64,000 nucleotides of DNA from an uncultured Clostridia bacterium (GTDB lineage: Bacteria > Bacillota > Clostridia > Oscillospirales > CAG-272): assembly GCA_944391805.1 (NCBI GenBank), contig CALXUY010000065.1, positions 3,437 through 67,436 on the forward strand. Reading direction: 5' to 3'. How positions within the stretch are numbered: position 1 is the stretch's first letter; the number at the start of each line of letters is the position of its first letter. Below the pieces are notes generated by a model, which had not been told where the DNA came from, did no database searches, and saw nothing but the letters and a program-made list of their open reading frames with translations. Both the position numbers and the translations under genes were made by a program. This document shows, piece after piece, positions 29,951 through 64,000 of the stretch.

Positions 29951-30168
29951 GTTCTTTTTTGCATATCATTTCCGCAAAATTTGTCCGTAAATTTGGATAT
30001 TCTGTCGGGTGCCGGAAGGGAAGAAAAAAATTTACTTCTGATGGTACCGAATTTTTGCTTGTACTCTTGCATTCTGTCGCTGTTTGTGATACAATGATAC
30101 GGATGACAAACGGCGGGAGCCCGGGCGCACTTTTTTACTTGCATTCACGGCACCGAAAGGAGATTGAT

Positions 30169-31605
30169 ATGGTTTTTTCCAGTTTGTTTTTTGTGTTCTT
30201 CTTTTTTGTGCTTTGTATGGCGCTGGTGCTCACGCGCAAGACCGTAAAGGGGCAGAACACGGTTCTGCTCATTTTTTCCCTGTTGTTTTACGCATGGGGC
30301 GGACCGGTTCTGCTCCTGCTGCTCTGCGGCGTCACCTTTATCTGTTGGCTGGGCGGACGGGTGATCGGGTGGCTGCAGCGTCCCTTCTACCGCAGGCTGA
30401 CGCTGTTCATGACGGTGGCGATCTGCATTCTGATATTTGTGTATTTCAAATATACCAATTTTCTTGCCGAGTCCTTCCGGTGGATTTTCCGGTTTGACAC
30501 GGTGCTCCCGGAAATTGTTCTGCCCATCGGCATCTCCTTTTATACCTTTCAGTTGCTCTCTTATGTGGCGGATGTCTATCGCGGAGAGGCAGAGGCGCAG
30601 CCGAGCTACCTGCGGCTGCTGCTGTATGCATCGCTGTTTCATCAGTGCGTGGCAGGGCCGATTGTGCGCTACAGCGATGTGTGCGCCGAGCTGGATCAGC
30701 GCAGCATCACGCTGCAGGATCTCTCCTCCGGTGTGACGCGCTTTGCGGTCGGCCTGGCCAAAAAGGCAGTGCTGGCCAATTACTGCGGCTCGCTGGCTTC
30801 CACTGCGCTGGCAGCGAACGGGCTGGCAGAGGCCTCCTCCGGAACGGTTTTTCTGGGCGGACTTTTCTACATGCTGCAAATTTATCTCGATTTTTCGGCC
30901 TACTCGGACATGGCCATCGGTATGGGGAGAATGTGCGGTCTGCACTACTGTGAAAACTTCAACTATCCCTATATTTCGGGGTCTGTGACCGAATTCTGGA
31001 GGCGGTGGCACATCTCCCTCTCCACCTTTTTCCGGGACTATGTGTACATCCCGCTCGGCGGAAACCGCCGGGGGCTTGGACGGCAGATCCTGAACCTGTT
31101 GGCGGTTTGGGCGCTGACAGGTCTTTGGCACGGCGCCTCGTGGAACTATGTGCTGTGGGGACTTTACTATTTTGTGTTCCTTGTCATCGAAAAGCTGTTT
31201 TTGCCCAAGCTGACCGACAAGACGCCGCTCTGGAGCCGTATTCTGCGCCATGTCGGCGTGCTGGTGATTGTGTGGTTCGGATGGATGCTGTTCTATTTTG
31301 AGGACCTTTCCGTATTCGGTACGGCAATCGGCTCGCTGTTCTGCGCCAATGGCAACGTGTTCTGGGATATGAACGCCCAGTTGATGCTGCTCAACAATCT
31401 GTTCTTCCTGATTGTGGCGATTCTGGCCTGCACACCGGTGGTTCCCTTTCTGCGGCGCAAGCTGGCAGAGGCAGGAAAGTCCAGCCCCGCGTGGGCGGCC
31501 TTTGGCAACGGCGTGGACGCCGCTTTTCCGGCCATATTGCTGTTTGCTTCCTTTGTGTCGCTGATCGGAAATACCTATAACCCCTTCCTCTACTTCCAGT
31601 TCTGA
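30169..31605 (+). CDS. MBOAT O-acyltransferase (AlgI/PatA/DltB-like)
   Basis: LPIGISFYTFQ, AGPIVRY, QIYLDFSAYSD, ENFNYPY, FWRRWHISL, GLWHGA, NPFLYFQF. Confidence 0.93.
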   Translation: MVFSSLFFVFFFFVLCMALVLTRKTVKGQNTVLLIFSLLFYAWGGPVLLLLLCGVTFICWLGGRVIGWLQRPFYRRLTLFMTVAICILIFVYFKYTNFLAESFRWIFRFDTVLPEIVLPIGISFYTFQLLSYVADVYRGEAEAQPSYLRLLLYASLFHQCVAGPIVRYSDVCAELDQRSITLQDLSSGVTRFAVGLAKKAVLANYCGSLASTALAANGLAEASSGTVFLGGLFYMLQIYLDFSAYSDMAIGMGRMCGLHYCENFNYPYISGSVTEFWRRWHISLSTFFRDYVYIPLGGNRRGLGRQILNLLAVWALTGLWHGASWNYVLWGLYYFVFLVIEKLFLPKLTDKTPLWSRILRHVGVLVIVWFGWMLFYFEDLSVFGTAIGSLFCANGNVFWDMNAQLMLLNNLFFLIVAILACTPVVPFLRRKLAEAGKSSPAWAAFGNGVDAAFPAILLFASFVSLIGNTYNPFLYFQF

Positions 31606-31722
31606 CAATCCGCCGCCGGAGTTTGCCTCCGGGATCCCGGCTTCGGAGCAGCTTTCATGCTGTGAACCGGAGCCAAATTACATGTGGACAGGAATGCTTC
31701 TCCTGTCCCGGAAAGGTACATC

Positions 31723-33396
31723 ATGAATCAAATGCCAAACAAACCCCGGTCGGGGGAGTCCTCATCGGAGCCGTACATTGGTCAGACGGCGGAAACGCGT
31801 TCCGAGCCCTACCGCGTGCGGCAGGAAGCCGGACATGCCGCCGCAGGTGAGCCGCATGTTACCCGGATGGCTGGGGATCGCACAGACCGGCGTGCCGGAA
31901 TGACCGCCGCTCATCCGACGGAGCCACGGGACAGCGCCCGCTCCGCGGCCTCTCCCGGCGGGTCGCAGGGAGAAGAATCTGGGGGAGGTGTGGGAACGGT
32001 CGTACGGCAGGCCGGCGCGCCGGCGGAAAGCACAGGTGCTTCCCGTTCTGCCGCGGCTTCTGCCAACCCCCGCGCCAATTCCAACAAGACGAATGCTTCG
32101 GCACGCAAGGATGCGGTCAAAATCTATGTGTTTGCCGCGATGCTGATTGTGTTTTTTGTGGTCGGCCTGCTCTTTTTCCTGCGTCCGTCGGTCTCTGAAA
32201 CCGAAAAGCGTCAGCTCACCGAGTTTCCGAAATTCACATGGGAGAGCTTCTTGAGCGGGGAATACTTTGCTCAGATTTCCACATGGTATTCCGATACCTT
32301 CCCGGGGCGGGAGACCTTTATTTCGCTCAATCAGGCTCTGAAAAATCTTTACGGGATCCGCACCATGCAAATCGTGCAGAATCCGCCATCCGGAAACAAC
32401 AATCCCGACGATCCGGGAGGCAACGACCCTCTGAACCCGGGAAATGAGGATGACGACACGCCGGTGGAGCGCTTTGATACGGTGTTCATCAAGGGAGACC
32501 GCGCGTTTGAGATTTACAAATTCAGCCAGACCGCCTCCGACCGCTATGCTTCTATCATTAACTCTGCTGCCGACAAGATGAACGGGGTAGAGGTTTACAA
32601 CATCATTGTACCGCTCTCTTATTCGGTAAACCTGACCGAGCGGGAGCAGCAGAGCATCGGCGCCTCCAATGTGGAGGACGCCATTTCCTACATGTACGGG
32701 AAAATGAACGATCGGGTTCACACGGTGGAGGTGCTTTCGGGACTGCTGGAGCACAAAGACGAATATCTGTATTTCCGCACCGACCATCACTGGACGGCCA
32801 GAGGCGCATATTATGCTTACGAGGCATTTTGCCGTGCTTCCGGGCAGGAGCCGCTCCCGCTGGACAGTTGGCAGCGGGTGGAGTTCAGCGGATTCCTCGG
32901 CACCTTGTATGCCTCGGCAGGCCAGCCGCCGGCACTGGCGCAGAACCCGGACTATGTGGAGGCGTGGATCCCCCATTCCACCAATAAAATGATTACACTT
33001 TACAATGGCGGCAGCGGCAGTAACTATCACGAGACGGAACAGTTCCCGATTATTCAGACCAATCCGAATTACTATCAGGCGGCAGGCTCCAAGTACAACA
33101 CCTTTATCGCCGGCGACCACCCGCTGATTACCATCAAAAATCCGAATCCCTCATCCACCAACGGCAAGAGCATTGTGGTGGTCAAGGAATCCTATGGCAA
33201 CGCTTTTGTACCCTTCCTCGTCGACCAATATGAGACGGTTTACGTGGTGGATTACCGGTATTTCCAAAAGGCTGTCGACAAAACCCTGCCCGAATTCGTT
33301 TCAGAGGTGGGAGCCGATCAGGTGCTTTTCCTCAATTACATCTACTCCACCGCCGAAAATGCCCGCCTGAACGAGCTGCAGGCGCTGATCGGATGA
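31723..33396 (+). CDS. DHHW family (AlgJ/AlgX/PatB-like) O-acetyltransferase partner
   Basis: SETEKRQL, YFRTDHHWT, FLGTLY, KESYGNAF, VVDYRY; long low-complexity N-terminus followed by a single TM. Confidence 0.85.
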   Translation: MNQMPNKPRSGESSSEPYIGQTAETRSEPYRVRQEAGHAAAGEPHVTRMAGDRTDRRAGMTAAHPTEPRDSARSAASPGGSQGEESGGGVGTVVRQAGAPAESTGASRSAAASANPRANSNKTNASARKDAVKIYVFAAMLIVFFVVGLLFFLRPSVSETEKRQLTEFPKFTWESFLSGEYFAQISTWYSDTFPGRETFISLNQALKNLYGIRTMQIVQNPPSGNNNPDDPGGNDPLNPGNEDDDTPVERFDTVFIKGDRAFEIYKFSQTASDRYASIINSAADKMNGVEVYNIIVPLSYSVNLTEREQQSIGASNVEDAISYMYGKMNDRVHTVEVLSGLLEHKDEYLYFRTDHHWTARGAYYAYEAFCRASGQEPLPLDSWQRVEFSGFLGTLYASAGQPPALAQNPDYVEAWIPHSTNKMITLYNGGSGSNYHETEQFPIIQTNPNYYQAAGSKYNTFIAGDHPLITIKNPNPSSTNGKSIVVVKESYGNAFVPFLVDQYETVYVVDYRYFQKAVDKTLPEFVSEVGADQVLFLNYIYSTAENARLNELQALIG

Positions 33397-51912: not shown

Positions 51913-52015
51913 ACTTGTGCTTGAGGCTTGTTTTCGCTGTCCACTCAAACATCGGGGAATGAAGCATGGTATTTTGCCGTACATTCCCCGACTGTTGGGA
52001 GCGGCAGCTTGCCGC

Positions 52016-52107
52016 TGGCGGAGAAGGAGAGATTTGAACTCTCGCGCCGGTATAGCCGGCCTACACCCTTAGCAGGGGCGCCTCTTCGGCCTCTTGAGTA
52101 CTTCTCC
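52016..52107 (-). tRNA. tRNA-Ser (GCT)
   Basis: GGAGAAG...CGCCC-CTGCTAA-GGGTG, long variable arm, GAGAGTTCAAATCTCTC, CTTCTCC-GCCA. Confidence 0.97.
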
Positions 52108-52154
52108 AAATACTCCTGCGAGATGCCGGTTGCATTCTCTCGCAGATTTCTTAT

Positions 52155-52183
52155 ATTATACACATTTTTACCGGCTTTGTCAA
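52155..52183 (-). promoter_or_regulatory. Consensus sigma-A promoter of tRNA-Ser
   Basis: TTGACA-17 bp-TATAAT on the minus strand. Confidence 0.85.
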
Positions 52184-52406
52184 GAGCTTTTTGCATTTTT
52201 TCTTGTCTGCCTTTCAAAATGTTTTCCGATCGGCTGATGCCGGATGGCTGTACCGCTCGGAATGAATGTCGATTCCACTCATATATTGACCGCAGCGGCC
52301 TCTCACGGTTAAAAAAAGGCGCTTTCAGCAACGGATGATCCGATATCGAAGCTCCCATTTTGTAATAGCGTAAGAAAACGGGATGCTCGATATCGGATCG
52401 CGTCGG

Positions 52407-52644
52407 TTAAGGCAACACCGCACAATTCTGATTGTGCGCCGCTTGCGGCTCTCTGCATGTCAGATTTTTCGTGGGGCAAGCCAAAACGACGCTGGCAATA
52501 GTGAATCTGATTGCAACAAGCTGCGCTTGTAGGAGATTTGTGCATGCCCCCAGCCTGCCGGCGGAAAGATGCAAAAAGTTGTATCATCAATGGCGAAAGG
52601 CTTTCCTGCGGAAAGCCGCCGTGAATTGCGCGGTGTTGCCTTAA
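52407..52644. mobile_element. MITE copy 3
   Basis: TTAAGGCAACACCGCACAATTC ... GAATTGCGCGGTGTTGCCTTAA; internal blocks shared with copy 2. Confidence 0.85.
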
Positions 52645-53530
52645 GGATGAACCAACTTTTTTTGTGAAAAATATTCCTTTGGCGGAACGCCGACCACTCG
52701 CTTGAAGGCGCGGGTGTATGCCTGTGGATTGGCAAAGCCGATTTGATATGCCACATCGGTGATGGTCTGCCCGCTTTCTTCCATCATTCGGATGCTTTCC
52801 TCAATTTTCTTGCGGCAGATGTATTGCTGCAGTGTGATTCCCATTTGCTGCTTGAAGCAGTGCGACAGATAGGATGCGCTGTAATTGAATTTCTGCACAA
52901 TTTCTCCGATGCTCTGAATGGTCCGGATCGAGCTGTCGATGTAGAGCATGACCGCATACATCGAAATCCCGCCGGAGCCGTCGGCAATCTCGTTGCGGTA
53001 GTTTTTGCGGGACTGCGAAAGATAGATGCGCATGACAGACACCGCTAACTCATTGAGGCAGCACTCTATCATCAGGCTGTGGCAGAGCGAAGCATTGTAA
53101 TATTCGTTCAGACATCGGCTGAAAAGCAGCATGATCTCATGATCTCCCTTCATAATATTGACAGGGGGGCCTGGTAAAAGGAATCGATCAGCCGGGTATC
53201 GTCGTTCAGGGCACCGTTGCAAATGCTGAAGCCGATGAACATATACCGGAAATGGTGATTGGAAAATACCTCGTGCTGTACGCCGACCGGGGTGATAAAC
53301 AAATCTCCCTCATGCACCTCATATTCCTTCCCGTCAATCGAGGTCATTCCTTCTCCGGAAATCACGTAGGAAATTTCATAGCACCACTGTACGTGTGGAT
53401 CACAGCGATAGCCCGGCTCACAATCCTGTTCGCCAATCTGGTGGATCAGGTAGTTCCCGATTCGGTCCGGTTTGCCGATGAATTGTTTTTCATATCTGGA
53501 CCGGATTCCGTTCAAAGACGGTGGTTTCAT
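52641..53530 (-). pseudogene. AraC family regulator (cupin + HTH), frameshifted at C6 tract 53164-53169
   Basis: The cupin ORF (PHVQWCYEISYVISGEG...QHEV) ends at 53150; the HTH ORF (YLSHCFK...FANPQAYTRAFKR) is in another frame. One extra C restores ...YQAPPVNIMKG. Confidence 0.8.
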
Positions 53531-53966
53531 CTGACACTCCTCCTGTGTATTTGCTGCCATTTGAGGGAAGCGAGGCGGTGCGTGATCTCCTGTGGTTATG
53601 GCCGTGCGGGGATTTTGCACTTCCTTTTGCACACAATATGCTTCCTGCCATGAGAAACAACATTCCCTCTGAAAATATTATATCAAAAAAATATGGGATT
53701 GCAAGACAGAAAATGCGTAAAATATCCAAAATTTACGAAAAATATGGAGGTGCGGAAGAATGGGCAATTTGTCGAAAACAAAGGAAACAGATGATAAAAA
53801 CACAAATAATCGAGAAATGACATCCTGTTTTTGTTTGAAATCAATAAAAAGCAGATTGGGGTAAGTATAATGCCGCATTCGGGTATTGTATTTGCGAATG
53901 AACGGTGCTATCATTAAAGCATACCGGAAGCCGGAGAAGAACCGGCTCGGGAGAAAGGAGCAGAAT

Positions 53967-55511
53967 ATGATGAAACGATCCATTCTTACGTCGGTATTCC
54001 TGTCTCTTCTGGCGCTGACGCTGCTGCTGTCAGCCTGCGGTGACAAGGAAATCAGCCCGCCGCCGGATGCAACCCAGCCGTCTGACGTCACGACCGCCGG
54101 AGGCGATCCCGGAACCGGTGATGTGCCGGATATTCCGATTATGGATTTTGACGGCAGCGAGGTGGTGTTTCTGACACGGAATTCCGAGTGCGGGGACTTT
54201 GAAACCTGGGATTTGCTCGAAACCGACCTGCAGGGGGATTCCATGAACGCGGCAATTGTCCGGCGAAACAGCTATATTCAGGATACCTATGACGTTTCCA
54301 TCGTGCAGCGTCAGTATGGAGGCAGCGTCAACGAAGGGGAGATGTACACCGCTATCTATAACAACTTTTTCAACGGCGGCGCGGCGGCAGAGGATGCTTT
54401 TCACGTAGCCTACTGTGGCGTGACCGATGCCATTCGCTTGGCGGCCAGCGGTATTTTCTATGATCTGAGCGAGCTTCCGTACATCGATCTTGCCTCTTCC
54501 TGGTGGGATGCTGAGGCCATGAGCAGCCTCACCATTGCCAACCGGTATTATTTCGGTGTGGGGGATATTTCGGTACAGCTTTACGATACGCTTCCGTGTC
54601 TGGTATTCAATAAGATGATGGCGCAGGATTACACCACTCCCGACGAGCTGTATCGCATGGTGGAGGAGGGGAACTGGACCTATGAGGAATTTTACTCCAT
54701 CATTCGGGAGGTATACAGCGATGCAGACGATGTGGCCGGACCGTCTGTAGGGGACCGCTTCGGAGCGGGTGGACAGAATGACAACCTCTATTGCTTCTTT
54801 TATGGCAGCGGCTGCCGCACCGTGACGACCAATCAGAACGGAGATCCCGAGCTGACGATCTACAGCGAGCAGAATAACACCGTGTTTACCGATCTGTTTG
54901 AGCTGCTGACCGACCGAGAGGCCTTTTTCAACTGCAACGATTATGCCAACGTTCCGGGCTGGGAATCCTCACCGATCGAGTTTGTCATCGACGGCTTTAT
55001 CGGCGGCCGGGTGCTGTTCTATTCGGACGGTCTGCTGCATTTGCCCGAGCTGAGGGAGGCCAGCTTTGAGTTCGGCATTCTCCCGGTGCCCAAGTATACG
55101 GCCGGGCAGGAGTCCTATTATCACCTCATCGGTATGTGGGGAGCCACTCTGGTAACGGTGCCTGCCGGCTGCCCCGATGTGAAAATGACGGCTCTTTTGC
55201 TGGAGGCTATGGGCGCGCAGTCCGAAAAAACGGTTGCCACCGAGTATTTTGAGCAGAAGCTGGCGCTGCAGAGCGTGCGGGACAGTGAAAGCGCAGGCTC
55301 GCTTGGCATTATCATCGACACCAAGGGCTTTGATATGGGGCAGTGCTTCCGATGGAACGATCTCCATCTGATTCTGGGAGACTGCCTGACGCAGAAAAAC
55401 AATTCCTTTTATTCCAACTATCAGGGCAAGGTTTCCGGCATCCAGATTGAAATGAACAAAACCATATCCGCGTATCAGTCATTGCCGCATTACATTGAAT
55501 TGGAGGATTGA
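53967..55511 (+). CDS. Extracellular solute-binding lipoprotein (family 1-like, sugar)
   Basis: Lipobox LSAC; DLSELPYID..SWWD, FNK, VEEGNWT, FGILPVPK, VRD.ES. Confidence 0.8.
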   Translation: MMKRSILTSVFLSLLALTLLLSACGDKEISPPPDATQPSDVTTAGGDPGTGDVPDIPIMDFDGSEVVFLTRNSECGDFETWDLLETDLQGDSMNAAIVRRNSYIQDTYDVSIVQRQYGGSVNEGEMYTAIYNNFFNGGAAAEDAFHVAYCGVTDAIRLAASGIFYDLSELPYIDLASSWWDAEAMSSLTIANRYYFGVGDISVQLYDTLPCLVFNKMMAQDYTTPDELYRMVEEGNWTYEEFYSIIREVYSDADDVAGPSVGDRFGAGGQNDNLYCFFYGSGCRTVTTNQNGDPELTIYSEQNNTVFTDLFELLTDREAFFNCNDYANVPGWESSPIEFVIDGFIGGRVLFYSDGLLHLPELREASFEFGILPVPKYTAGQESYYHLIGMWGATLVTVPAGCPDVKMTALLLEAMGAQSEKTVATEYFEQKLALQSVRDSESAGSLGIIIDTKGFDMGQCFRWNDLHLILGDCLTQKNNSFYSNYQGKVSGIQIEMNKTISAYQSLPHYIELED

Positions 55512-55514
55512 GTG

Positions 55515-57317
55515 ATGAAAAAACTGCGTTTATTCAAGCCGCTGGCACTGCTGGGCATTGCCGCGCTCCTGCTGACATCCTGCGGCAGCCCCCAACCGGA
55601 GGAGAACAATTCCACATCCTCTATGGAGCCGGACGCCGGGCAGGAATCTGTACATAACAATCAGTTGTCCGAAAACGAGAACCACCCCAATCTGGCCGTC
55701 ACATATTCGGTCTCCAGCATGGAGGAGCTCAGGGCACTCCGGGCGGAGCAGGCCAATGCCACCGTGTATCTGCGCGGATACTATGAGCCGGGCGACGGCG
55801 GAGGCGGCAGCTTCTATTGGGATGCGGAGAGCCAGCTTCCGGATGACGGCGGCACCGTGATTCAGCCAGAGGGGGTGGAAACCGGGCGCTTTATCCGCCT
55901 GTGTGAGCCGAACCATCGCAACGTCAAATGGTTCGGTGCAGTGGGGAGCGGCAAAAAGGACGACTACGAAGCCATTCAGGCTGCCATCGACAGCCTGCCC
56001 CAGAACGGCGGTACGGTGGTGCTGCCCGGTGGAACCTATGCGGTCACAAAGACCATTCAGATCGGCAACGGCAACGGTGGTGAAACCTTTTCCAATCAGA
56101 ACGCCGTCAAGCTGGTGGGGCAGGGAGGCGGCTTCGCGGTGACGGGCGATGCGATCCCCACGACCATTGTGGCGGCGTCCGGCATGGCCGATCTGATCCG
56201 GGTCAATGGCCGGATCTCCGATCTGCTCTTTCAGGATCTCTGCCTGAGCGGCAACAATCAGGCGCAGGTCTGCCTTTCCATGACTGCCTTCAGCGGCACC
56301 ACACTGCGGGATGTTCGCATTCAGCAGTTCAGCCGCATCGGCCTGGAGATTATGGGGGGAGAAGAGCCGGTTGGCAACTACAACATTTCCAACCGGTTTG
56401 AAACCGTGCAGATTGTGGCGTCAATGGACAATACCACCTGCCTGCTGATGGACGGTGTGTACAGTGCAAACAACGACACCTGGCTCACCGTGTTCAACAA
56501 CTGCAGCTTTGATACCGGCTCCTGCGCGGGTGCCACCGGCGCATGGTTCCGGTTTGTAGACAGCAATTCCTTCTACCGCTGTCAGTTTGGCGGGAGCGGA
56601 GAGGGCAGCGTGGGAATTGTATTTGACGCGACGGCAAACCATGATTTTCCCTGCGGCATGGCGTTTTATGATTGCTCTGTGAGCAGCACGCAGGTGCTTG
56701 AGGACGAATCACACCAGATCCGCAAAAACTATTTCTATGGCTATTGTACCGCAAACGGCGAGGAGCTTCCCACCCATAACCGCCTGATCGGCATTACCGA
56801 TACCGGAGTTCCGTTCAATATGGAGGAGCTGACCATCGGAGGCGGGGGCACCAATCCGGGCGGATCGGGCCTGCCGGCCAAGCGGGGGGCTGTGGACACC
56901 TACACCGCTGCCGAATACAACCATCTCAATCTTGCCGAGACCGGAGACGAGGTGGGGATTCGCTTCAACGCGGGCGGAACCTTCCGGGGGGCCACCTTCT
57001 ACATGCCGAACTATGATAATAATCTCGGCTCCGCTACCATCAACGTTTACAAGTGGGATACCGATTACCGCCAGAGCAAGGCCGGAGAGGTGCTCTACAG
57101 CGTCACCTTTGAAAACTTTGACAACAACATCTGGAACCGTTTTGAAATGGCGGATGGGCTGCCTGCCGGTGAGTACCTTCTCACCATCACCGCCACGGCG
57201 CCCGAGGGAGATGCCGGCTGCGGTGTTTGGACCAAGGGGAAAACCGCAGTGGTGGAAACCTACCACAACGGGTATCTGGCCGAGTTTGGGCTGGTGGGAC
57301 AAATTCTGATCGATTGA
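55515..57317 (+). CDS. Lipoprotein with tailspike-like/Pectate_lyase_3 beta-helix and C-terminal beta-sandwich
   Basis: Lipobox LTSC; RGYYEPGDGGGGSFYWD...DDGGTVI...GRFIR; NVKWFGAVGSGKKDDYEAIQAAID...VLPGGTY. Confidence 0.75.
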   Translation: MKKLRLFKPLALLGIAALLLTSCGSPQPEENNSTSSMEPDAGQESVHNNQLSENENHPNLAVTYSVSSMEELRALRAEQANATVYLRGYYEPGDGGGGSFYWDAESQLPDDGGTVIQPEGVETGRFIRLCEPNHRNVKWFGAVGSGKKDDYEAIQAAIDSLPQNGGTVVLPGGTYAVTKTIQIGNGNGGETFSNQNAVKLVGQGGGFAVTGDAIPTTIVAASGMADLIRVNGRISDLLFQDLCLSGNNQAQVCLSMTAFSGTTLRDVRIQQFSRIGLEIMGGEEPVGNYNISNRFETVQIVASMDNTTCLLMDGVYSANNDTWLTVFNNCSFDTGSCAGATGAWFRFVDSNSFYRCQFGGSGEGSVGIVFDATANHDFPCGMAFYDCSVSSTQVLEDESHQIRKNYFYGYCTANGEELPTHNRLIGITDTGVPFNMEELTIGGGGTNPGGSGLPAKRGAVDTYTAAEYNHLNLAETGDEVGIRFNAGGTFRGATFYMPNYDNNLGSATINVYKWDTDYRQSKAGEVLYSVTFENFDNNIWNRFEMADGLPAGEYLLTITATAPEGDAGCGVWTKGKTAVVETYHNGYLAEFGLVGQILID

Positions 57318-57327
57318 GGAGCGGTCT

Positions 57328-58602
57328 ATGAAAAACGGAAAATTTTTTGGCGCACTGACTCTGCTGTTCGCCTTTGCACTGGCCGGAGCGGGCTGCACCG
57401 ACAAAGCCCCGTCGGGGGGAGAACCCACCGATACCGGCACGCAGACTCCGCCGGAGCCGGAAACCCCGCAGAGCGCCGCGTATGTGGTGGAAAGCGCCTT
57501 GGAGCTGCAGCGCCTGACCGGACTGCACGATGGCGACACGGTGCTGATGAAGGGCTTTTATCTCCCCGGAGACGGGGGAGGCGGAATGTTTGTTTGGGAT
57601 GAAGGCTCTGCGGCGGAAATCGATGGCGGCACCGTGTTCGGCGGTGGGAGCGATACCGGCCGCTTTGTGCGGGACTGTGAGCCGAACTACCGGAATGTCA
57701 GGTGGTTCGGTGCCGTTGGGAGCGGCAGCACGGACGATACCGAGGCCATCCAAAGGGCCATCGACAGCCTGCCCGCATCGGGCGGTACCGTTTCTGTTCC
57801 GGGCGGCAATTATCGCATCAGTCAGCCGTTGCAGATCGGCAACGGAGACGGTGCCAACCGGCACTCCACGGTCAACGGCATCCGTCTGATAGGCGAGGGG
57901 GGCGGCTTTGCTTCCGGAGGCACACAGTATCCGACCCGTCTCACGGCTGCTGTGCCGATGGAAACGATGCTCTCGGTCAACGGCAAAATCAGTGACGTGG
58001 TCCTGCAGGATATGTTCATCGACGGCAATTATATGGCGAATAGCGGAATTGTCATTCAGGCGGCCAGCGGTCTGACCGTAACCGATATTTCGGTTGGCGT
58101 TACGCTTGTGTACGGCATACAGGTTCTTGGCGGATCGGGTATCGGGACCGAAAATAAGCTGAACCGTTTTGAAACGGTTTCGGTTTACGCGGTGGAGGAG
58201 AAAACAATCTGCCTCTATATGGACGGCGCTACCGAGGGCACCCCCGGCAACAGCATGACAACCTTTGTGGACTGCAGATTTGACACTGCACAAACCGAAA
58301 ATTCCTACGCTGTCTGGATGCGCAGCACCACCGGAACCGATTTTTACCGCTGTCACTTCAACACCTATCAGGACAGCAGCACGGGACTGGTGCTGGATGC
58401 AACCAATTGCCACGGATACCCGTATGGAAATGTCTTTTACGATTGCTCCATCGTCTCGGTTGCGGTTCAGGAGGATCAGACCGGTTATATCGGCCGCAAT
58501 TTCTTCTACGGCTATGGCACCTATGATCTGGAGGATCTGCCGGAGCACCCGATGCTCTCGGGTATTACCGATGCGGGAATCCCCTTTAATCTCGGCTCCT
58601 GA
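57328..58602 (+). CDS. Paralogous tailspike-like beta-helix lipoprotein
   Basis: Lipobox GAGC; KGFYLPGDGGGGMFVWD...DGGTV...GRFVR; NVRWFGAVGSGSTDDTEAIQRAID; colinear with the upstream gene. Confidence 0.75.
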   Translation: MKNGKFFGALTLLFAFALAGAGCTDKAPSGGEPTDTGTQTPPEPETPQSAAYVVESALELQRLTGLHDGDTVLMKGFYLPGDGGGGMFVWDEGSAAEIDGGTVFGGGSDTGRFVRDCEPNYRNVRWFGAVGSGSTDDTEAIQRAIDSLPASGGTVSVPGGNYRISQPLQIGNGDGANRHSTVNGIRLIGEGGGFASGGTQYPTRLTAAVPMETMLSVNGKISDVVLQDMFIDGNYMANSGIVIQAASGLTVTDISVGVTLVYGIQVLGGSGIGTENKLNRFETVSVYAVEEKTICLYMDGATEGTPGNSMTTFVDCRFDTAQTENSYAVWMRSTTGTDFYRCHFNTYQDSSTGLVLDATNCHGYPYGNVFYDCSIVSVAVQEDQTGYIGRNFFYGYGTYDLEDLPEHPMLSGITDAGIPFNLGS

Positions 58603-58637
58603 AGGCGGCCGGAAATGCAATGAAAGGAAGGAAAAGT

Positions 58638-60062
58638 ATGAAACAGTTATTGGTTGTGGCGTTGATTCTTGCGTTGCTGCTCGGCCTATGCGTCATGGGA
58701 ACCGTGGCGGCCGAGGATCAATGGACGGCTACCGACCTCAATCCGGTGCCTCCTGCCGACGAGCATATCAAGATGCACGACGGCGTGAATGAAACAACCG
58801 TTGCCTTTCGTGCCGTCATCACCGGCGACTGGTATGGTGTTGCACCCTACGTCGGAGATTACGGCAACTATGGGCAGGATTTCACCATTTCGGTGTATGC
58901 GTGGGCAGGCAGCTACGAGCAAACGGTGGCGGGCGAGGCGCTGCGCCAGGGAACGGTGGGAGACGGCGACGAACTGGGCAATACCTATCGTGACTTTCTG
59001 TTCGATGCCCCGCTGGAGAAGGGGGATTATCTCGTTGTGTATCACAATGCCACCCCGGTAGACTGGGGCATTGCAACCTGGTTCTGTCCGTCGGCGGCCA
59101 TGGGCGTTGCGGTGTTCAAAAACGGCGAGGAGGTGCCCGACCGTTCGCTCGCGACCAGAATCTATGTGGATGCGCCTGCGGGGGAGGGCTTTTCGAGAAG
59201 TCCGCTGACAGACGGAGGCACATCGGTCCCCGAGCTGGAAAATCCCTATGCGCCGGCCACCGGCAATGTCAGCTTTGGCTATGCCGGCCCGCAGTGGAAT
59301 CCCAAAACGCCCATCCTGCTGACCGGCAGCACGGTTGCGGTCCGTATGGTGACCAAGGCCACGGTCAATGCCATCAGTGTATACGCCGGCTGTGAGGCGG
59401 GAGAGGGAGGCGGATTGATCTTTCGCGTATATCCATGGGCGGACGACTATGCCTCCACGTTGGCGGGAAACCCGTTACAGAGCTGGATGGTCAGCGGAAT
59501 CAAGGAGGGGGAGTACATCAACTTCCCGATGGAGGGCGGACTCGAGGCGGGGGATTATCTCGTGGTGATGTCCGATGCGTTCCATGCGATTCCGGGCAAG
59601 ACCGTCAGTCTCTGGGGCGGTCCGGCAGATACCGGGTTGGCCTATGTCACCTATGTGAACGGTGTGGAGAGTACCGAGCTGGATCTGTTTGCCCTGATTT
59701 ATGCGCAGGGCGCCGCGGGTGAGGCGCTTGCCCCGGCTGATATGCTGGTGCCCGGCGGGCAAACGACGGAACAGACAACAGAACAAACCACCGAGCAGCC
59801 GACCGAGCAACCGACTGAGCAGCCGACCGAGCAGCCGACCGAGCAGACCACAGACCGGCCGACTGAGCCGCTCACCGGAGACCCGACCGACACATCCGAG
59901 GAAGCTACTCCTACCGAAGGCGGAGAGGTTTCGGAAACACAGACAGGGGACGATCGTGGCGCGGGGGCAGGGTGTTCTTCGCTCATCGCCGGGAGTATGA
60001 CGGTCATATGCACGGCAAGCGTGCTCGCCGCGCTGGCTGTTTGCCGGAAAAAGAAGCGCTGA
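58638..60062 (+). CDS. Secreted surface protein: two repeated beta-sandwich modules, TEQP linker, Cys-TM-basic C-terminal anchor
   Basis: Signal peptide; VYxW...Y..T.AG..L...L..GDYLVV occurs twice; ends GAGCSSLIAGSMTVICTASVLAALAVCRKKKR. Confidence 0.75.
   Translation: MKQLLVVALILALLLGLCVMGTVAAEDQWTATDLNPVPPADEHIKMHDGVNETTVAFRAVITGDWYGVAPYVGDYGNYGQDFTISVYAWAGSYEQTVAGEALRQGTVGDGDELGNTYRDFLFDAPLEKGDYLVVYHNATPVDWGIATWFCPSAAMGVAVFKNGEEVPDRSLATRIYVDAPAGEGFSRSPLTDGGTSVPELENPYAPATGNVSFGYAGPQWNPKTPILLTGSTVAVRMVTKATVNAISVYAGCEAGEGGGLIFRVYPWADDYASTLAGNPLQSWMVSGIKEGEYINFPMEGGLEAGDYLVVMSDAFHAIPGKTVSLWGGPADTGLAYVTYVNGVESTELDLFALIYAQGAAGEALAPADMLVPGGQTTEQTTEQTTEQPTEQPTEQPTEQPTEQTTDRPTEPLTGDPTDTSEEATPTEGGEVSETQTGDDRGAGAGCSSLIAGSMTVICTASVLAALAVCRKKKR
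59763..59891 (+). repeat. 12-bp coding tandem repeat (TEQT/TEQP linker)
   Basis: ACCGAGCAGCCG-like units, about 10 degenerate copies. Confidence 0.85.
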
Positions 60063-60149
60063 CCCGAAACGGCGCAGCGTGTATCACGCGGAGCGGAATT
60101 CTGTCAACGGTTCCGCTCCGGATCCTGCTACGGAGGTATTATAACAATC

Positions 60150-61691
60150 ATGGTTTCAAACAGTGTGTCTTTTCAGACCACCGATTCGCTGGTGCAGGCC
60201 GTGTACAACGCGGCCGAGGACAAGGCGCGGCACAATCTGGTGCAGTTTGCAGGCCGACGGGTGCTGATAGAGGGGGGAGAATACCCGAACCTCTGGCTGG
60301 AGACCCAGCCCATGGGGGGAGAAATGTATGCCAAGCGTGACCCCGAGGCGGCTTACAACAACATCGATCTGTTTATGCGGGCGGCCGACAGCGAGGGGAT
60401 GATGCCCGGCATGATTTCGTATATCGACGGCGTTTACCGCGAGCATCACAATTTTATTCAGGGCTACTGCTTTCCGGTGCATGCGCTCAATCTCTATTAT
60501 CTGTTGAATTTGGACAGGGATTATCTTCTGCGCCTGTATGAGGCCTTACGCCGCTATGACGCATGGCTATGGGCCAGCCGGGAGAGCGACGGGGACGGGT
60601 GTCTGGAGGCCTGGTGCCCCTGCGACACCGGGGAGGATTATGCATCCAAGTTTTTCGGCGCTCCTCACTTCTGGGAGAGCAGGAATCCGCCCCACAGCCA
60701 CGAATATCACTTCCCGCGCGCCTCAATGGACCTCATGGGATACTCCTATGACGGCAGGCGGACTCTGGCACAGGTTTCGGCGCTGCTTGGGAATGGTGAG
60801 GAGGCATACTGGAGCGCACAGGCAGAGGAGATCAAACGCAAAATCCGGTCCTACCTGTGGCGGGAGGAACGGCATGCCTGCTTTGACCGGGACGAGAACG
60901 GCGCATGGCTGGAAATACTGACGCACAACAACCTGCGGGTGATGTACCACGGGGCCTTTTCACAGGAGATGGCCGACGATTTCATCCGGTATCATCTGGT
61001 CAATCCGGAGGAATTCTGGACGCCTATGCCGCTGCCCTCCACGGCCGTGAACGATCCACTCTTCCGCAACATTCCCGAAAATAACTGGAGCGGTCAGCCC
61101 GAGGGCCTGACCTATCAGCGTACCATCCGGGCACTGGAAAACTATCGGCATCATGCGGAAATTCCGCTGCTCGGCAACCACCTGCTCCGGGCCATCGGAG
61201 CCGAGGGCTTTTTTTCGCAGCAGTTTGATCCGTTTACAGGGGAGATCTCCCGCAAGAACAATCCAACCGGAGATTACGGCCCCACATTGCTGGCATGTCT
61301 GGAGTATATTTCCCGTATGTATGGCGTGCACCGGCAGTTCGATGAAATCTGGTGGGGCGCTTATCACGGGGGACACGACTGCTCGTATACCCAACGCTAC
61401 GGAGAGACGACCTGCTGCATCGGTCAGCGCGGCGGGCAGGCGGAGGGCTTTGTCAACGGCGTTTCGGTGTTCCGTGTCAGCGCAGGCTGCCGGGTGGAAA
61501 CCACACTTGCCGGTAAGGTCCTGCGTGTCACAAACATCTCGGCTGGCGCGCAGATTCAGCGTCTGGAAACCGAAGGAAAATGCATATCCCAACTGCTGGA
61601 ACCCAATCAGGCGCTGGTGCGCACAGCATCCGGGGATTTTGTACCGGATCGGAGCGTTCCCTTCACGCTTCCCGAGCCGGAGCGAGCCTGA
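60150..61691 (+). CDS. (alpha/alpha)6 glycoside hydrolase (GH63/MGH1-like)
   Basis: YPNLWLETQP, DGDGCLE...DTGED, EEFWTPMPLPS, NNWSG, SQQFDPFTG. Confidence 0.6.
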   Translation: MVSNSVSFQTTDSLVQAVYNAAEDKARHNLVQFAGRRVLIEGGEYPNLWLETQPMGGEMYAKRDPEAAYNNIDLFMRAADSEGMMPGMISYIDGVYREHHNFIQGYCFPVHALNLYYLLNLDRDYLLRLYEALRRYDAWLWASRESDGDGCLEAWCPCDTGEDYASKFFGAPHFWESRNPPHSHEYHFPRASMDLMGYSYDGRRTLAQVSALLGNGEEAYWSAQAEEIKRKIRSYLWREERHACFDRDENGAWLEILTHNNLRVMYHGAFSQEMADDFIRYHLVNPEEFWTPMPLPSTAVNDPLFRNIPENNWSGQPEGLTYQRTIRALENYRHHAEIPLLGNHLLRAIGAEGFFSQQFDPFTGEISRKNNPTGDYGPTLLACLEYISRMYGVHRQFDEIWWGAYHGGHDCSYTQRYGETTCCIGQRGGQAEGFVNGVSVFRVSAGCRVETTLAGKVLRVTNISAGAQIQRLETEGKCISQLLEPNQALVRTASGDFVPDRSVPFTLPEPERA

Positions 61692-61857
61692 ACCGAACTG
61701 TTTCCCGGAACGGCAGGGAGAGAGACGCGGGACCGATGGTGTTGCTCGCCGTGACGGCGGCTTCTGCCGTTCGGTTACCGGTCTGCACCGATTCCGACAA
61801 TTGCGCCTCCGGCAACGGCATATTGCCTGCCGGGGGCTTTTGCAGAAAGGCGAAAAG

Positions 61858-62715
61858 ATGATGAAAAAAATCGGGTTTATCGACTATTACCTTGACGAGT
61901 GGCATGCCGTCAATTACCCCGCGTGGATAAAGGAGGCGGTGCAGCGGCTGGGGCTTGCCTACGCAATTGACTATGCATGGGCTGAGTGTGAGCATTCCCC
62001 TGTCACCGGCGGCAGCACCGCAGAGTGGTGCGCCCGTTATGGAGTGAAGGCCTGCGGGAGTATGGAGGAGCTGTGCGGCAGCAGCGATGCAATTGTGATT
62101 CTGTCGCCGGACCATGCGGAAAACCACCTGCGCTATGCGCGGACCGCACTGCGCTATGGAAAGCCGGTTTATATTGATAAAACCTTTGCCCCTACCCTGA
62201 CGGAGGCAAAGGAGATATTTTCCATTGCCGGCCGTTTCGGTACGCCGGTCTGTTCCTCCTCGGCTCTGCGCTTTGCCGGGGAGCTGGAAACCGACAAGCC
62301 CGTGCGGGAGCTTGTCACCACCGGCTGCGGCTTTTCCTTTGATACCTATGCGGTCCATCAGGTTGAAATGATTGTGTACTGTCTCGGGACAGGCGCCACC
62401 AGACTGATGGCGCTGCAAAACGGTTCCGATAAGACGTTGGTCATCGATTATGCCGACTGCCGCAGGGCATTGCTCTGCCAGAGCATCGGCGCCGAGGCAC
62501 CGTTTACGGTCAGTATGGATTGCGGCGGGCCGCAGGCGGTCTACCGACCGATCACATCGGATTACTTCGGCCGTATGATCGGGGAAATGCTGCACTTTTT
62601 TGAAACCGGGGAGCCGATGGCTCCACAGGCGCAGACGCTGGAGGTGATGGCGATTCTCGATGCCGGCCGGCAGGCGCTGTGCACACCGGACATATGGGTG
62701 CCGGTTGCGCATTGA
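61858..62715 (+). CDS. Gfo/Idh/MocA family oxidoreductase
   Basis: KIGFID, SDAIVILSP..H, GKPVYIDKTFA, SSALRF, YAVHQVE. Confidence 0.8.
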   Translation: MMKKIGFIDYYLDEWHAVNYPAWIKEAVQRLGLAYAIDYAWAECEHSPVTGGSTAEWCARYGVKACGSMEELCGSSDAIVILSPDHAENHLRYARTALRYGKPVYIDKTFAPTLTEAKEIFSIAGRFGTPVCSSSALRFAGELETDKPVRELVTTGCGFSFDTYAVHQVEMIVYCLGTGATRLMALQNGSDKTLVIDYADCRRALLCQSIGAEAPFTVSMDCGGPQAVYRPITSDYFGRMIGEMLHFFETGEPMAPQAQTLEVMAILDAGRQALCTPDIWVPVAH

Positions 62716-62859
62716 TCATCACACCCGGCCGGTGGTTTCCCCGATCCGCAGGGAAGCGCAGGAGGCAGACGAGGAGCGAAGGGAATTCATCAAAAAAGCG
62801 GTCAATGGCTGCTTTTTCAGAGCCGGCCGGTACACAAAAAGCACCGAAAGGAGTCTTAT

Positions 62860-64000
62860 ATGAGCATTCAGAAACTGACGTTTGGCAAACCGGAGGCACT
62901 GACGCCTTCCCGGTTCTGTCCGGAATTCCGGGGATGCGGGGCGGACGAACAGCGGCTCCCCTCCGGAAGCCTCCCACCCATCGGGTTCCGGCAGACCCCG
63001 CGGGGATGTGTGCTGGAGCTGCCGTTTTCCGAGCAGGAGGAGTACTATGGCTTCGGGCTGCAGCTTCACTCCTTTGGTCATAAAAACCGCAAGCTCACGC
63101 TTCGCGTCAACTCCGATCCGCTCTTTTCAACCGGCGATTCCCACGCACCGGTGCCGTTTTTTGTCTGCACAGCAGGCTACGGCGTGTTTGTGGATACCGC
63201 GCGCTATGCCGAATTCTATATGGGAGTGCAGCGGGTGACCTCGGCCACGCGTGGGGAGTCCGGTCACAGTGCCGACAACACCCGGGAGCTTTACACCCTG
63301 CGGGACAGCGGAGACGAGCGGGTCATTGCCATTCATATCCCGTCGGCGGCAGGGGTCGATCTGTATTGGATTGAAGGGGAGAACATCCTTGACGTGGTCA
63401 GACAGTACAACCGCATGGCTGGCGGAGGACCGGAGATTCCGGATTGGGGACTGGGAACCTACTACCGCTGCCATCTCGATGCCGACGCACACAGCGTGAT
63501 GCAAACAGCGGATTACCTGCATGGGCATGGCTTGCCCTGCAGTGTCATCGGGCTGGAACCGCACTGGCAGACTCGCTCTTACTCCTGCTCCTATATCTGG
63601 TCGGAAAAATTCCCGCCCGACCTCCGCCGGAAAATGGAGGCGCATCTCGCAGGGCGGGGGCTGCACCTCAACCTTTGGCAGCACGCCTTTGTGCATCCCG
63701 ATTCACCGCTGTATGATGCCATCGGAGAAGGCTGCGGCAGCTACAAGGTATGGGGAGGAAAGGTGCCGGATTTTGCCGTCCCACACACGCAGCACGCTTT
63801 TGCGGCATACCAAAGCGAGGCTCAGGTGAGCGATGTGACCGACGGCTTTAAGCTGGACGAGTGCGACGGCAGCGATTACACACGGGATTGGAGCTTTCCG
63901 AATTGCTCGGAGTTTCCGTCCGGGCTGGACGGGGAGCAGTACCACAGCCTGTTCGGAATGCTGTATGCGCGTGCAGCACTGGCAGCCCTGTCAGGGCGAC
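62860..64000 (+). CDS. Glycoside hydrolase family 31 (3' partial)
   Basis: ATG after AAAGGAG, open to the window end (absent from the ORF track). YYGFGLQ, SHAPVPFF...GYGVFVD, PDWGLG, IGLEPHWQ, GFKLDECD (nucleophile motif). Confidence 0.85.
   Translation, partial: MSIQKLTFGKPEALTPSRFCPEFRGCGADEQRLPSGSLPPIGFRQTPRGCVLELPFSEQEEYYGFGLQLHSFGHKNRKLTLRVNSDPLFSTGDSHAPVPFFVCTAGYGVFVDTARYAEFYMGVQRVTSATRGESGHSADNTRELYTLRDSGDERVIAIHIPSAAGVDLYWIEGENILDVVRQYNRMAGGGPEIPDWGLGTYYRCHLDADAHSVMQTADYLHGHGLPCSVIGLEPHWQTRSYSCSYIWSEKFPPDLRRKMEAHLAGRGLHLNLWQHAFVHPDSPLYDAIGEGCGSYKVWGGKVPDFAVPHTQHAFAAYQSEAQVSDVTDGFKLDECDGSDYTRDWSFPNCSEFPSGLDGEQYHSLFGMLYARAALAALSGR

Follow-up and report, generated by a model that had tools for sequence, protein, structure and literature searches.

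Gram-positive polysaccharide utilization loci (gpPULs) combine a regulator, a transporter and glycoside hydrolases (GHs). Bacteriophage tailspikes of the PF27114 plus PF12708 type, of which Fri1 gp49 from an Acinetobacter phage (6c72), Belisarius gp86 (24qi) and ORF18 of Geobacillus virus E2 (GVE2; 7chu) are solved examples, share a GDGGGG N-terminal subdomain, an NVxxFGAxGDG helix entry, a parallel beta-helix and a C-terminal cap, placed behind a virion-binding N-terminus. WceF of Pantoea stewartii (6tgf) is described in PMC7949094 as a bacterial trimeric tailspike-fold exopolysaccharide (EPS) glycosidase, which modifies the biofilm glycan of its own producer. Tailspike-fold glycanases of bacteria and Gram-positive glycan-use loci are therefore both already known. 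The present analysis deals with a gene cluster at the end of a 64,000-nucleotide stretch of DNA from an uncultured Clostridia bacterium (contig CALXUY010000065.1 of assembly GCA_944391805.1; hereafter the window), in which two adjacent genes on the plus strand encode the tailspike-like lipoproteins LipoA (55512-57317) and LipoB (57328-58602). The cluster was interpreted as a system that harvests glycans at the cell surface, with a beta-helix module of the phage-tail kind at its core, a reading to which we assign a probability of roughly 0.6. No paper on such a locus was found in the open-access literature searched.

The cluster resembled a gpPUL by its divergent AraC-family regulator, its lipoprotein similar to solute-binding proteins (SBPs), its surface-anchored putative glycanases with lectin-like modules and its cytoplasmic exo-type GHs. 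It differed by the lack of permease and ATPase genes, and by endo-acting candidates that are homologues of phage tail proteins instead of members of characterised GH or polysaccharide lyase (PL) families. An AraC regulator, an SBP-like protein and exo-type GHs devoid of signal peptides are the usual make-up of catabolic operons. With the solved tailspikes, LipoA and LipoB shared the N-subdomain, helix entry, beta-helix and cap listed above, and a side-by-side trimer was predicted for LipoB; fold matches reached Z 29-31, and identity to proteins from viral contigs was 32-39% over nearly the full length. Unlike tailspikes, they carried a lipoprotein leader in place of the virion-binding N-terminus, their genes were chromosomal and accompanied by AraC, SBP-like and cytoplasmic glycosidase genes with no phage genes around, and one of the two paralogues, LipoB, had no conserved Asp pair. 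WceF and LipoB are alike in being cell-encoded tailspike-like beta-helices with no capsid-binding role, but WceF is encoded, according to PMC7949094, among the EPS synthesis genes of a plant pathogen that is Gram-negative, whereas the cluster studied here looks catabolic and comes from a Gram-positive gut anaerobe.

LipoA and LipoB are paralogues, and both displayed letter for letter the motif pair (GDGGGG region and helix entry) that an earlier note, made from the sequence alone, had likened to phage tailspike N-termini. The motif stretch reads ...LRGYYEPGDGGGGSFYWDAESQLPDDGGTVIQPEGVETGRFIRLCEPNHRNVKWFGAVGSGKKDDYEAIQAAIDSL in LipoA and ...MKGFYLPGDGGGGMFVWDEGSAAEIDGGTVFGGGSDTGRFVRDCEPNYRNVRWFGAVGSGSTDDTEAIQRAIDSL in LipoB. 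Both motifs corresponded to conserved columns in an alignment of 34 relatives and are therefore not due to chance. LipoA (601 aa) comprises a leader (Cys24), the GDGGGG N-subdomain, a parallel beta-helix bearing D322 and D350, and a lectin-like beta-sandwich at about residues 455-601. LipoB (424 aa) comprises a leader (Cys23), the same N-subdomain and a beta-helix with G307 and T335 at the family Asp columns. Both leaders were hydrophobic and ended in Cys, as judged by reading, and take the place of the virion-binding N-terminus, consistent with the cell anchoring proposed earlier. The Pfam family PF12708 (Pect-lyase_RHGA_epim) matched LipoA with 45.1 bits and LipoB with 51 bits (cut-off 27) over profile positions 1-63 of 213, and homologues from the related locus L007 up to profile position 203, while all matches in a search of NCBIfam were far below cut-off.

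LipoA and LipoB are true homologues of phage tail proteins, beyond a common motif. Among 53 pattern matches on viral contigs, 12 encoded relatives with 32-39% identity over LipoB residues ~53-420. In the six annotated viral loci, these relatives adjoined tape measure, tail J-like, endolysin, terminase or major head genes and bore N-termini of the tail-fibre type. Tail-protein families of PHROG matched both lipoproteins, the best being phrog_4250, annotated "EPS depolymerase" (E 8e-21 for LipoA, residues 49-236; E 3e-14 for LipoB), a match that spans the GDGGGG region. The domain PF27114 (Phage_tail_beta) was precomputed on P0001, a cluster representative 99% identical to LipoB. A word-based search retrieved 89 relatives, mostly Clostridia proteins of 420-640 aa with precomputed PF12708 and PF27114, and a profile search of 1.84 billion cluster representatives yielded 360 at E <= 1e-30. 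Many of the best 150 profile matches had 100-300 additional N-terminal residues and no signal peptide. Together with the fold matches given below, these results bear out the tailspike affinity that had been claimed. The earlier note had also considered that the proteins might nest within GH28, GH55, GH87 or PL families and show no such affinity. This was not found, because GH28, GH55 and AlgE sequences matched the helix entry only (~50-112 N-terminal residues) and their folds aligned from about residue 118; membership in GH28, GH55 or GH87 was rejected at the sequence level on the same ground, the matches being confined to the N-terminal helix entry.

The AlphaFold2 (AF2) model of LipoB (predicted local distance difference test, pLDDT, 89.3) and its fold matches displayed a right-handed parallel beta-helix with a tailspike-type N-terminal cap subdomain. 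When the model was searched with VIA-align against 48,161 chains, the first match was Fri1 gp49 (Z 31.1, root-mean-square deviation 2.8, 337 aligned residues, model residues 51-424), and the further top rows included Belisarius gp86 (Z 30.3), GVE2 ORF18 (29.5), Depo32 (28.9) and WceF (27.8). Among the solved structures listed, only tailspikes and WceF covered the N-subdomain (model residues 51-424), while GH28, PL and AlgE folds scored Z 20-27 with alignments starting at about residue 118. A Foldseek search of PDB and BFVD agreed with tailspikes as the best fold matches. WceF (6tgf) gave no sequence-level match in a profile search of PDB sequences.

A tailspike-like trimer was predicted for LipoB. 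Three copies of residues 48-380 of the 424 obtained a score of 0.62 (runs 0.62, 0.00 and 0.83), whereas none of three controls exceeded 0.00. The score mark was reached by 20 of 30 proteins solved as one-chain pairs and by 1 of 23 solved as single chains, counts that serve only as a rough calibration here, with an alignment of its own and three copies. The runs shared at least 18% of contacts, with a partner pLDDT of at least 83. The predicted interface had a period of roughly 30 residues on two faces of the helix and included residues 80-87 of the GDGGGG loop, so that the modelled contacts are the pattern of a side-by-side tailspike trimer. As solved tailspike trimers exist, the pass could reflect memory of these complexes.

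Close lipoprotein and secreted forms grouped apart from phage-type forms in unrooted trees. The FastTree phylogeny of 183 core domains placed 61 rows in one branch (support 99), composed of 39 lipoproteins, 11 signal-peptide proteins, 10 proteins with no called leader and one other, with N-extended and viral rows as neighbours. Within this branch, LipoA-type (~600 aa) and LipoB-type (~420 aa) subclades were separate, and eight signal-peptide forms branched first. The split was retained in a quick IQ-TREE phylogeny of 80 rows (SH-like approximate likelihood ratio test, SH-aLRT, 96), which tests that branch without providing an independent count, since its "cell" rows were picked from the FastTree result. 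The phylogeny proposed in the earlier note thus gave a single clade of cell-associated forms beside phage-type rows. Because phage-type rows stood on both sides of the clade, one capture from phage appears to be the simpler reading of these unrooted trees.

Two Asp columns distinguished the LipoA-type from the LipoB-type proteins. At the column of LipoB G307, 113 of the 123 rows outside the cell clade had Asp (92% acidic), and acidic residues were found in 100% of A-type rows (n=25) and 0% of B-type rows (n=27). At the column of LipoB T335, Asp was present in all 123 rows outside the cell clade, in 100% of A-type rows and in 26% of B-type rows. All 25 A-type rows retained both Asp, including LipoA itself (D322 and D350). 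The two columns are 28 residues apart, equivalent to one helix turn, and this spacing along with near-invariance makes D322/D350 a likely catalytic pair. As LipoB and its subclade are devoid of the two Asp, LipoB may bind the polymer instead of cutting it, or be an otherwise altered paralogue.

The gene order around both lipoproteins recurred in other genomes. Relatives were encoded in 17 loci of Clostridia metagenome-assembled genomes (MAGs), which were searched by tblastn with the window proteins as queries. The A-type gene was present in at least 16 of these 17 loci and the B-type gene in 10, and a GH63-type gene adjoined the beta-helix genes in 12. AraC genes were found in 10 loci, an SBP-like gene in 11, and Gfo-like and GH31 genes together in three. 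The lipoproteins thus sit in a conserved, catabolic-looking cluster. One locus had a different content (L006:12581-18526): there, the genes for a beta-helix lipoprotein and for a small protein of the lectin-like type precede those for a GH78 alpha-L-rhamnosidase, an FGGY-family carbohydrate kinase, an L-rhamnose isomerase and a class II aldolase.

Few relatives carried the cluster. It was found in one of 150 other genomes of the same family that were searched, and not in the two searched from the same genus. Near-identical DNA (at least half of the sampled words) was detected in 18 sequencing runs, mostly labelled chicken gut metagenome, and any part of it in 20 runs from 8 studies, five runs being a possible source of this DNA. 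In two metatranscriptome runs of one study (X19, X20), short contigs matched the AraC, SBP, LipoA, LipoB, surface protein, GH63-type and Gfo-like genes. As DNA can be present in such libraries, these contigs give only a weak hint of transcription. They left many parts of the cluster uncovered, gaps to which no meaning is attached.

Two further genes encoded proteins likely to act at the cell surface. The SBP-like lipoprotein (53967-55511, plus strand; 514 aa from the ATG at 53967, Cys24 in the lipobox LSAC of the translation) precedes LipoA, and its Pfam match to SBP_bac_1 (53886/53967-55511) was weak (17.3 bits, below the cut-off of 26), while homologues in L007 and L020 exceeded this cut-off (31.5 and 30.7 bits). 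A search against PDB sequences returned nothing useful for it. Downstream of LipoB, the surface protein (58620-60062, plus strand; 480 aa) was composed of a signal peptide, two lectin-like modules, a PT/TEQ-rich linker, a C-terminal hydrophobic anchor and a KKKR tail; Pfam reported a PT repeat in it. BLASTP related approximately the last 150 residues of LipoA to the surface protein (E 3e-9 and 3e-8), whose two repeats also matched each other (E 5e-11), and homologues of the module occurred in other loci as small separate proteins as well. The module was modelled as a beta-sandwich (pLDDT 93.3), with the lectin-like domain of Cwp84 as best fold match (Z 12.6), followed by a phage baseplate domain (11.4) and the carbohydrate-binding modules CBM36, CBM6 and CBM35 (~8).

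SBP-like genes outnumbered permease genes in the source genome. Searching it with tblastn (G000, 94% complete) gave 59 SBP-like hits, 62 AraC helix-turn-helix (HTH) hits and 15 permease-domain hits. An AraC hit was found within 5 kb of 35 SBP-like hits, and a permease hit within 5 kb of one. That permease, located beside an SBP paralogue on contig C58, was rejected as a partner, as it is fused and accompanies a different SBP type (SBP_bac_6/8). The other permeases of the genome belonged to phosphate and oligopeptide systems, in addition to two weak sugar-type pairs on contig C64. This leaves two readings, namely that a few permeases serve many of the SBP-like proteins, or that the latter are there to bind ligands at the surface.

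Some SBP-like genes were found next to other secreted hydrolases. Pfam analysis of 63 open reading frames (ORFs) neighbouring SBP paralogues displayed, among others, BNR_2, GH31, GH39, BspA-type leucine-rich repeat, GDSL and esterase families, with many ORFs matching no family. In L014 (751-3628) and L021 (851-2609), an SBP-like gene was directly followed by a gene for a different PF12708 protein, ~4 kb upstream of the main cluster, and in L006 an SBP-like gene was followed by one for a BNR_2 protein. From these three arrangements, the pairing of an SBP-like lipoprotein with a secreted hydrolase is recurrent. The genome also encoded a third PF12708 protein (C23:8065-14326; L004, L050), as an open frame of ~1250 aa on the minus strand. 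It adjoins an SBP-like paralogue (C23:8065-9474) and an AraC hit (C23:10205-10438), and this region may be a second locus of similar layout.

The last three genes of the cluster encoded proteins with no signal peptide, as judged by reading. The GH63-type (MGH1-like) (alpha/alpha)6 glycosidase (60150-61691, plus strand) reached 99.4 bits with Pfam and, among PDB sequences, matched only YgjK weakly (E 9e-4). It is followed by a short Gfo/Idh/MocA-like protein (61858-62715, plus strand; 285 aa), whose match to Pfam GFO_IDH_MocA begins at profile position 41, leaving the usual N-terminal glycine-rich nucleotide-binding turn unmatched; the Gfo-like gene co-occurred with GH31 and AraC genes in L009, L010 and L015. 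The GH31 gene (62860-64000 and beyond, plus strand; Pfam) extends 584 bases past the end of the window, on a contig that ends 587 bases later, and encodes a complete protein of 574 aa. This protein was closest to the Pedobacter saltans alpha-galactosidase PsGal31A (4xpo; E 3e-94 over GH31 residues 50-559), which differs from it in size (720 aa vs 574 aa). The Trp and Tyr given as galactose determinants of PsGal31A in PMC9491548 align with a W and a Y of the locus GH31, provided that an inferred one-residue numbering offset holds. The GH31 therefore resembles an alpha-galactosidase.

These elements could function together as follows. The SBP-like lipoprotein, LipoA, LipoB and the surface protein would all four be tethered outside the membrane. 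LipoA would be the likely endo-acting depolymerase, probably a tailspike-like trimer equipped with a lectin-like C-terminal module, while LipoB, together with the two lectin-like modules of the surface protein, would more likely hold the polymer, or act via other residues. Released oligosaccharides would be captured by the SBP-like lipoprotein and enter through a transporter encoded elsewhere, then be trimmed in the cytoplasm by the GH63-type enzyme, the alpha-galactosidase-like GH31 and the Gfo/Idh/MocA-like protein, with AraC switching on the operon. The substrate is probably a heteropolysaccharide containing alpha-linked galactose and glucose or mannose. Given the targets of the phage relatives, the best guess is a microbial surface polysaccharide or exopolysaccharide. 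Such an arrangement suggests the recruitment for feeding of a device with which phages cut the surface sugars of bacteria. The term polysaccharide utilization locus, applied by the earlier note, is only partly apt. The regulator, the GHs and the SBP-like gene were all present in the locus, but a permease gene was found in none of the clusters examined.

Several observations weigh against a glycan-harvesting system of this kind. The two Asp columns are not occupied by Asp in the closest solved relative (7chu), to which catalytic residues could consequently not be anchored, and LipoA carries N415 at a third conserved column, acidic in 93% of the other rows. It is possible that the "SBP" plays no part in transport, given 59 SBP-like hits for only 15 permease-domain hits. 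Pfam detected no permease gene among 78 ORFs of six related loci, nor did tblastn with six permease queries in the 17 loci and the window, a search insensitive enough to miss a permease-domain hit at the start of the window. The presence in L006 of GH78 and rhamnose catabolism genes instead of the GH63-type gene indicates that substrates differ between loci. Five leader-bearing rows fell outside the clade in FastTree (P0140, P0154, P0168, P0180 and P0192), and the choice of the "cell" group from that same tree limits the second phylogeny. A score of 0.00 was obtained in one of the three trimer runs, and in this assembly the AraC gene carries a frameshift.

The main competing view keeps the same machinery and changes the target, which would be a glycan of dietary or fungal origin (a side chain of pectin or gum, a galactomannan or an alpha-glucan) and not a bacterial capsule or EPS. 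PF12708 also spans rhamnogalacturonases, GH28, GH82 and GH87 folds align with Z 21-24, and the MAGs with related loci are of rumen, caecum and gut origin, habitats in which plant glycans dominate. In L006, moreover, the module is joined to a GH78 rhamnosidase and rhamnose catabolism, and an alpha-galactosidase-like GH31 with a GH63-type enzyme would suit plant or fungal alpha-glycosides equally. However, the full-length relatives were phage tail proteins, whereas plant-glycan enzymes matched no further than approximately the 75 N-terminal residues, and the N-subdomain was common only to tailspikes and WceF among the solved structures listed. A dietary or fungal target was considered unlikely. 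Remodelling or recycling of the cell's own surface polysaccharide, with cytoplasmic enzymes salvaging the pieces, would follow the example of WceF and stewartan, and WceF, a bacterial trimeric tailspike-fold glycosidase according to PMC7949094, aligned over residues 51-424 with Z 27.8. The same paper places WceF inside an EPS synthesis cluster, though, while glycosyltransferase and export genes were found neither in the present cluster nor in six annotated loci. The combination of AraC, SBP-like and signal-less exo-type GH genes is usual for catabolic operons, and a cluster found in only one of the 150 other genomes of the family argues further against this role, which appears quite improbable.

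Both lipoproteins could also be non-catalytic adhesins or lectins, comparable to the Streptococcus pneumoniae beta-helix adhesin PfbA, and stand near glycosidase genes with no shared pathway. PfbA aligned with Z 24.6 and turned up in sequence searches, LipoB is devoid of the two conserved Asp, and lectin-like behaviour is reported for WceF in PMC7949094. The PfbA alignment started only at residue 120, however, and excluded the N-subdomain; LipoA and all 25 A-type rows retained both Asp, and the link to a GH63-type gene recurred in 12 of 17 loci, so that a purely adhesive function is very improbable. Returning to glycan harvesting, a complete evolutionary scenario can be drawn, which we consider less likely than not. 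A tailspike lineage would have been captured once by gut Clostridia, provided with leaders, duplicated into a cutting LipoA and a holding LipoB, and wired to AraC and cytoplasmic alpha-glycosidases, allowing the cell to feed on the capsules or EPS of its neighbours. The SBP-like lipoproteins, numbering about 57 per genome and having hardly any permeases next to them, would then be Gram-positive counterparts of surface glycan-binding proteins and not classical transporter subunits.

If LipoA is an active depolymerase, a phage host-recognition enzyme would have been reused by a bacterium for nutrition, an uncharacterised glycanase family would be added to gut Firmicutes, and a concrete handle would be available for studying how bacteria in animal guts cross-feed on the surface glycans of other bacteria. 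Should the capture scenario be true, it would define a glycanase family not described before, together with a novel organisation of Gram-positive loci for glycan use. For the passage from a tailspike module to a lectin, a natural test is available in the pair of active-looking and Asp-less paralogues, as well as in the repetition of the lectin-like module and in an SBP-like lipoprotein that has no permease.

The gene neighbourhood was as first described, Pfam having confirmed the SBP, surface protein, GH63-like, Gfo/Idh/MocA and GH31 genes opposite AraC. Intergenic gaps were 0-17 bases among the first four plus-strand genes and 87-166 bases among the last three. A scan of 53400-64000 for promoters and terminators gave no signal (8 promoter-like sites vs 5.2 expected, 8 terminator-like sites vs 10.2 expected), so operon boundaries were left unset. 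The regulator gene (52641-53632, minus strand), divergent from the operon, encodes a cupin sensor and HTH_18 according to Pfam and was split by a frameshift into two ORFs, the cupin part (53632-53150) and the HTH part (53222-52641), overlapping at 53150-53222. The frameshift sits in a G-run near 53163-53170. AraC homologues in L005, L007, L014 and L020 were intact single ORFs. A contig of DNA run X9 carried one extra G behind 53163, besides a G>T change at 53168, and no listed contig of run X7 spans the site. Because of the additional G in X9, the frameshift may be strain-specific or an assembly error.

No phage genes were seen near the cluster by Pfam on the window neighbours, including 14 upstream ORFs (29959-50544), in line with their absence in the initial description. 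These 14 ORFs belonged to glycogen-metabolism, PdxS/PdxT, ABC, rubrerythrin, Crp, MBOAT and DHHW families, and a GntR-aminotransferase fusion was also encoded upstream. A prophage remnant or a tailocin was rejected as an origin of the two genes on account of these metabolic neighbours and of the lipoprotein leaders on both proteins. At 29959-33396, a gene for an MBOAT acyltransferase precedes one of the DHHW family, the latter matching AlgX-like SGNH weakly; this pair looks like a surface-polymer O-acylation system and has no relation to the tailspike-like proteins. A tRNA-Ser(gct) gene (52016-52107, minus strand) lies just before the cluster, and GC content dips to 0.45-0.50 over 52000-54000, compared with ~0.58-0.62 around. 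Given the tRNA-Ser gene, this dip and its rarity in the family, the cluster may be an acquired island.

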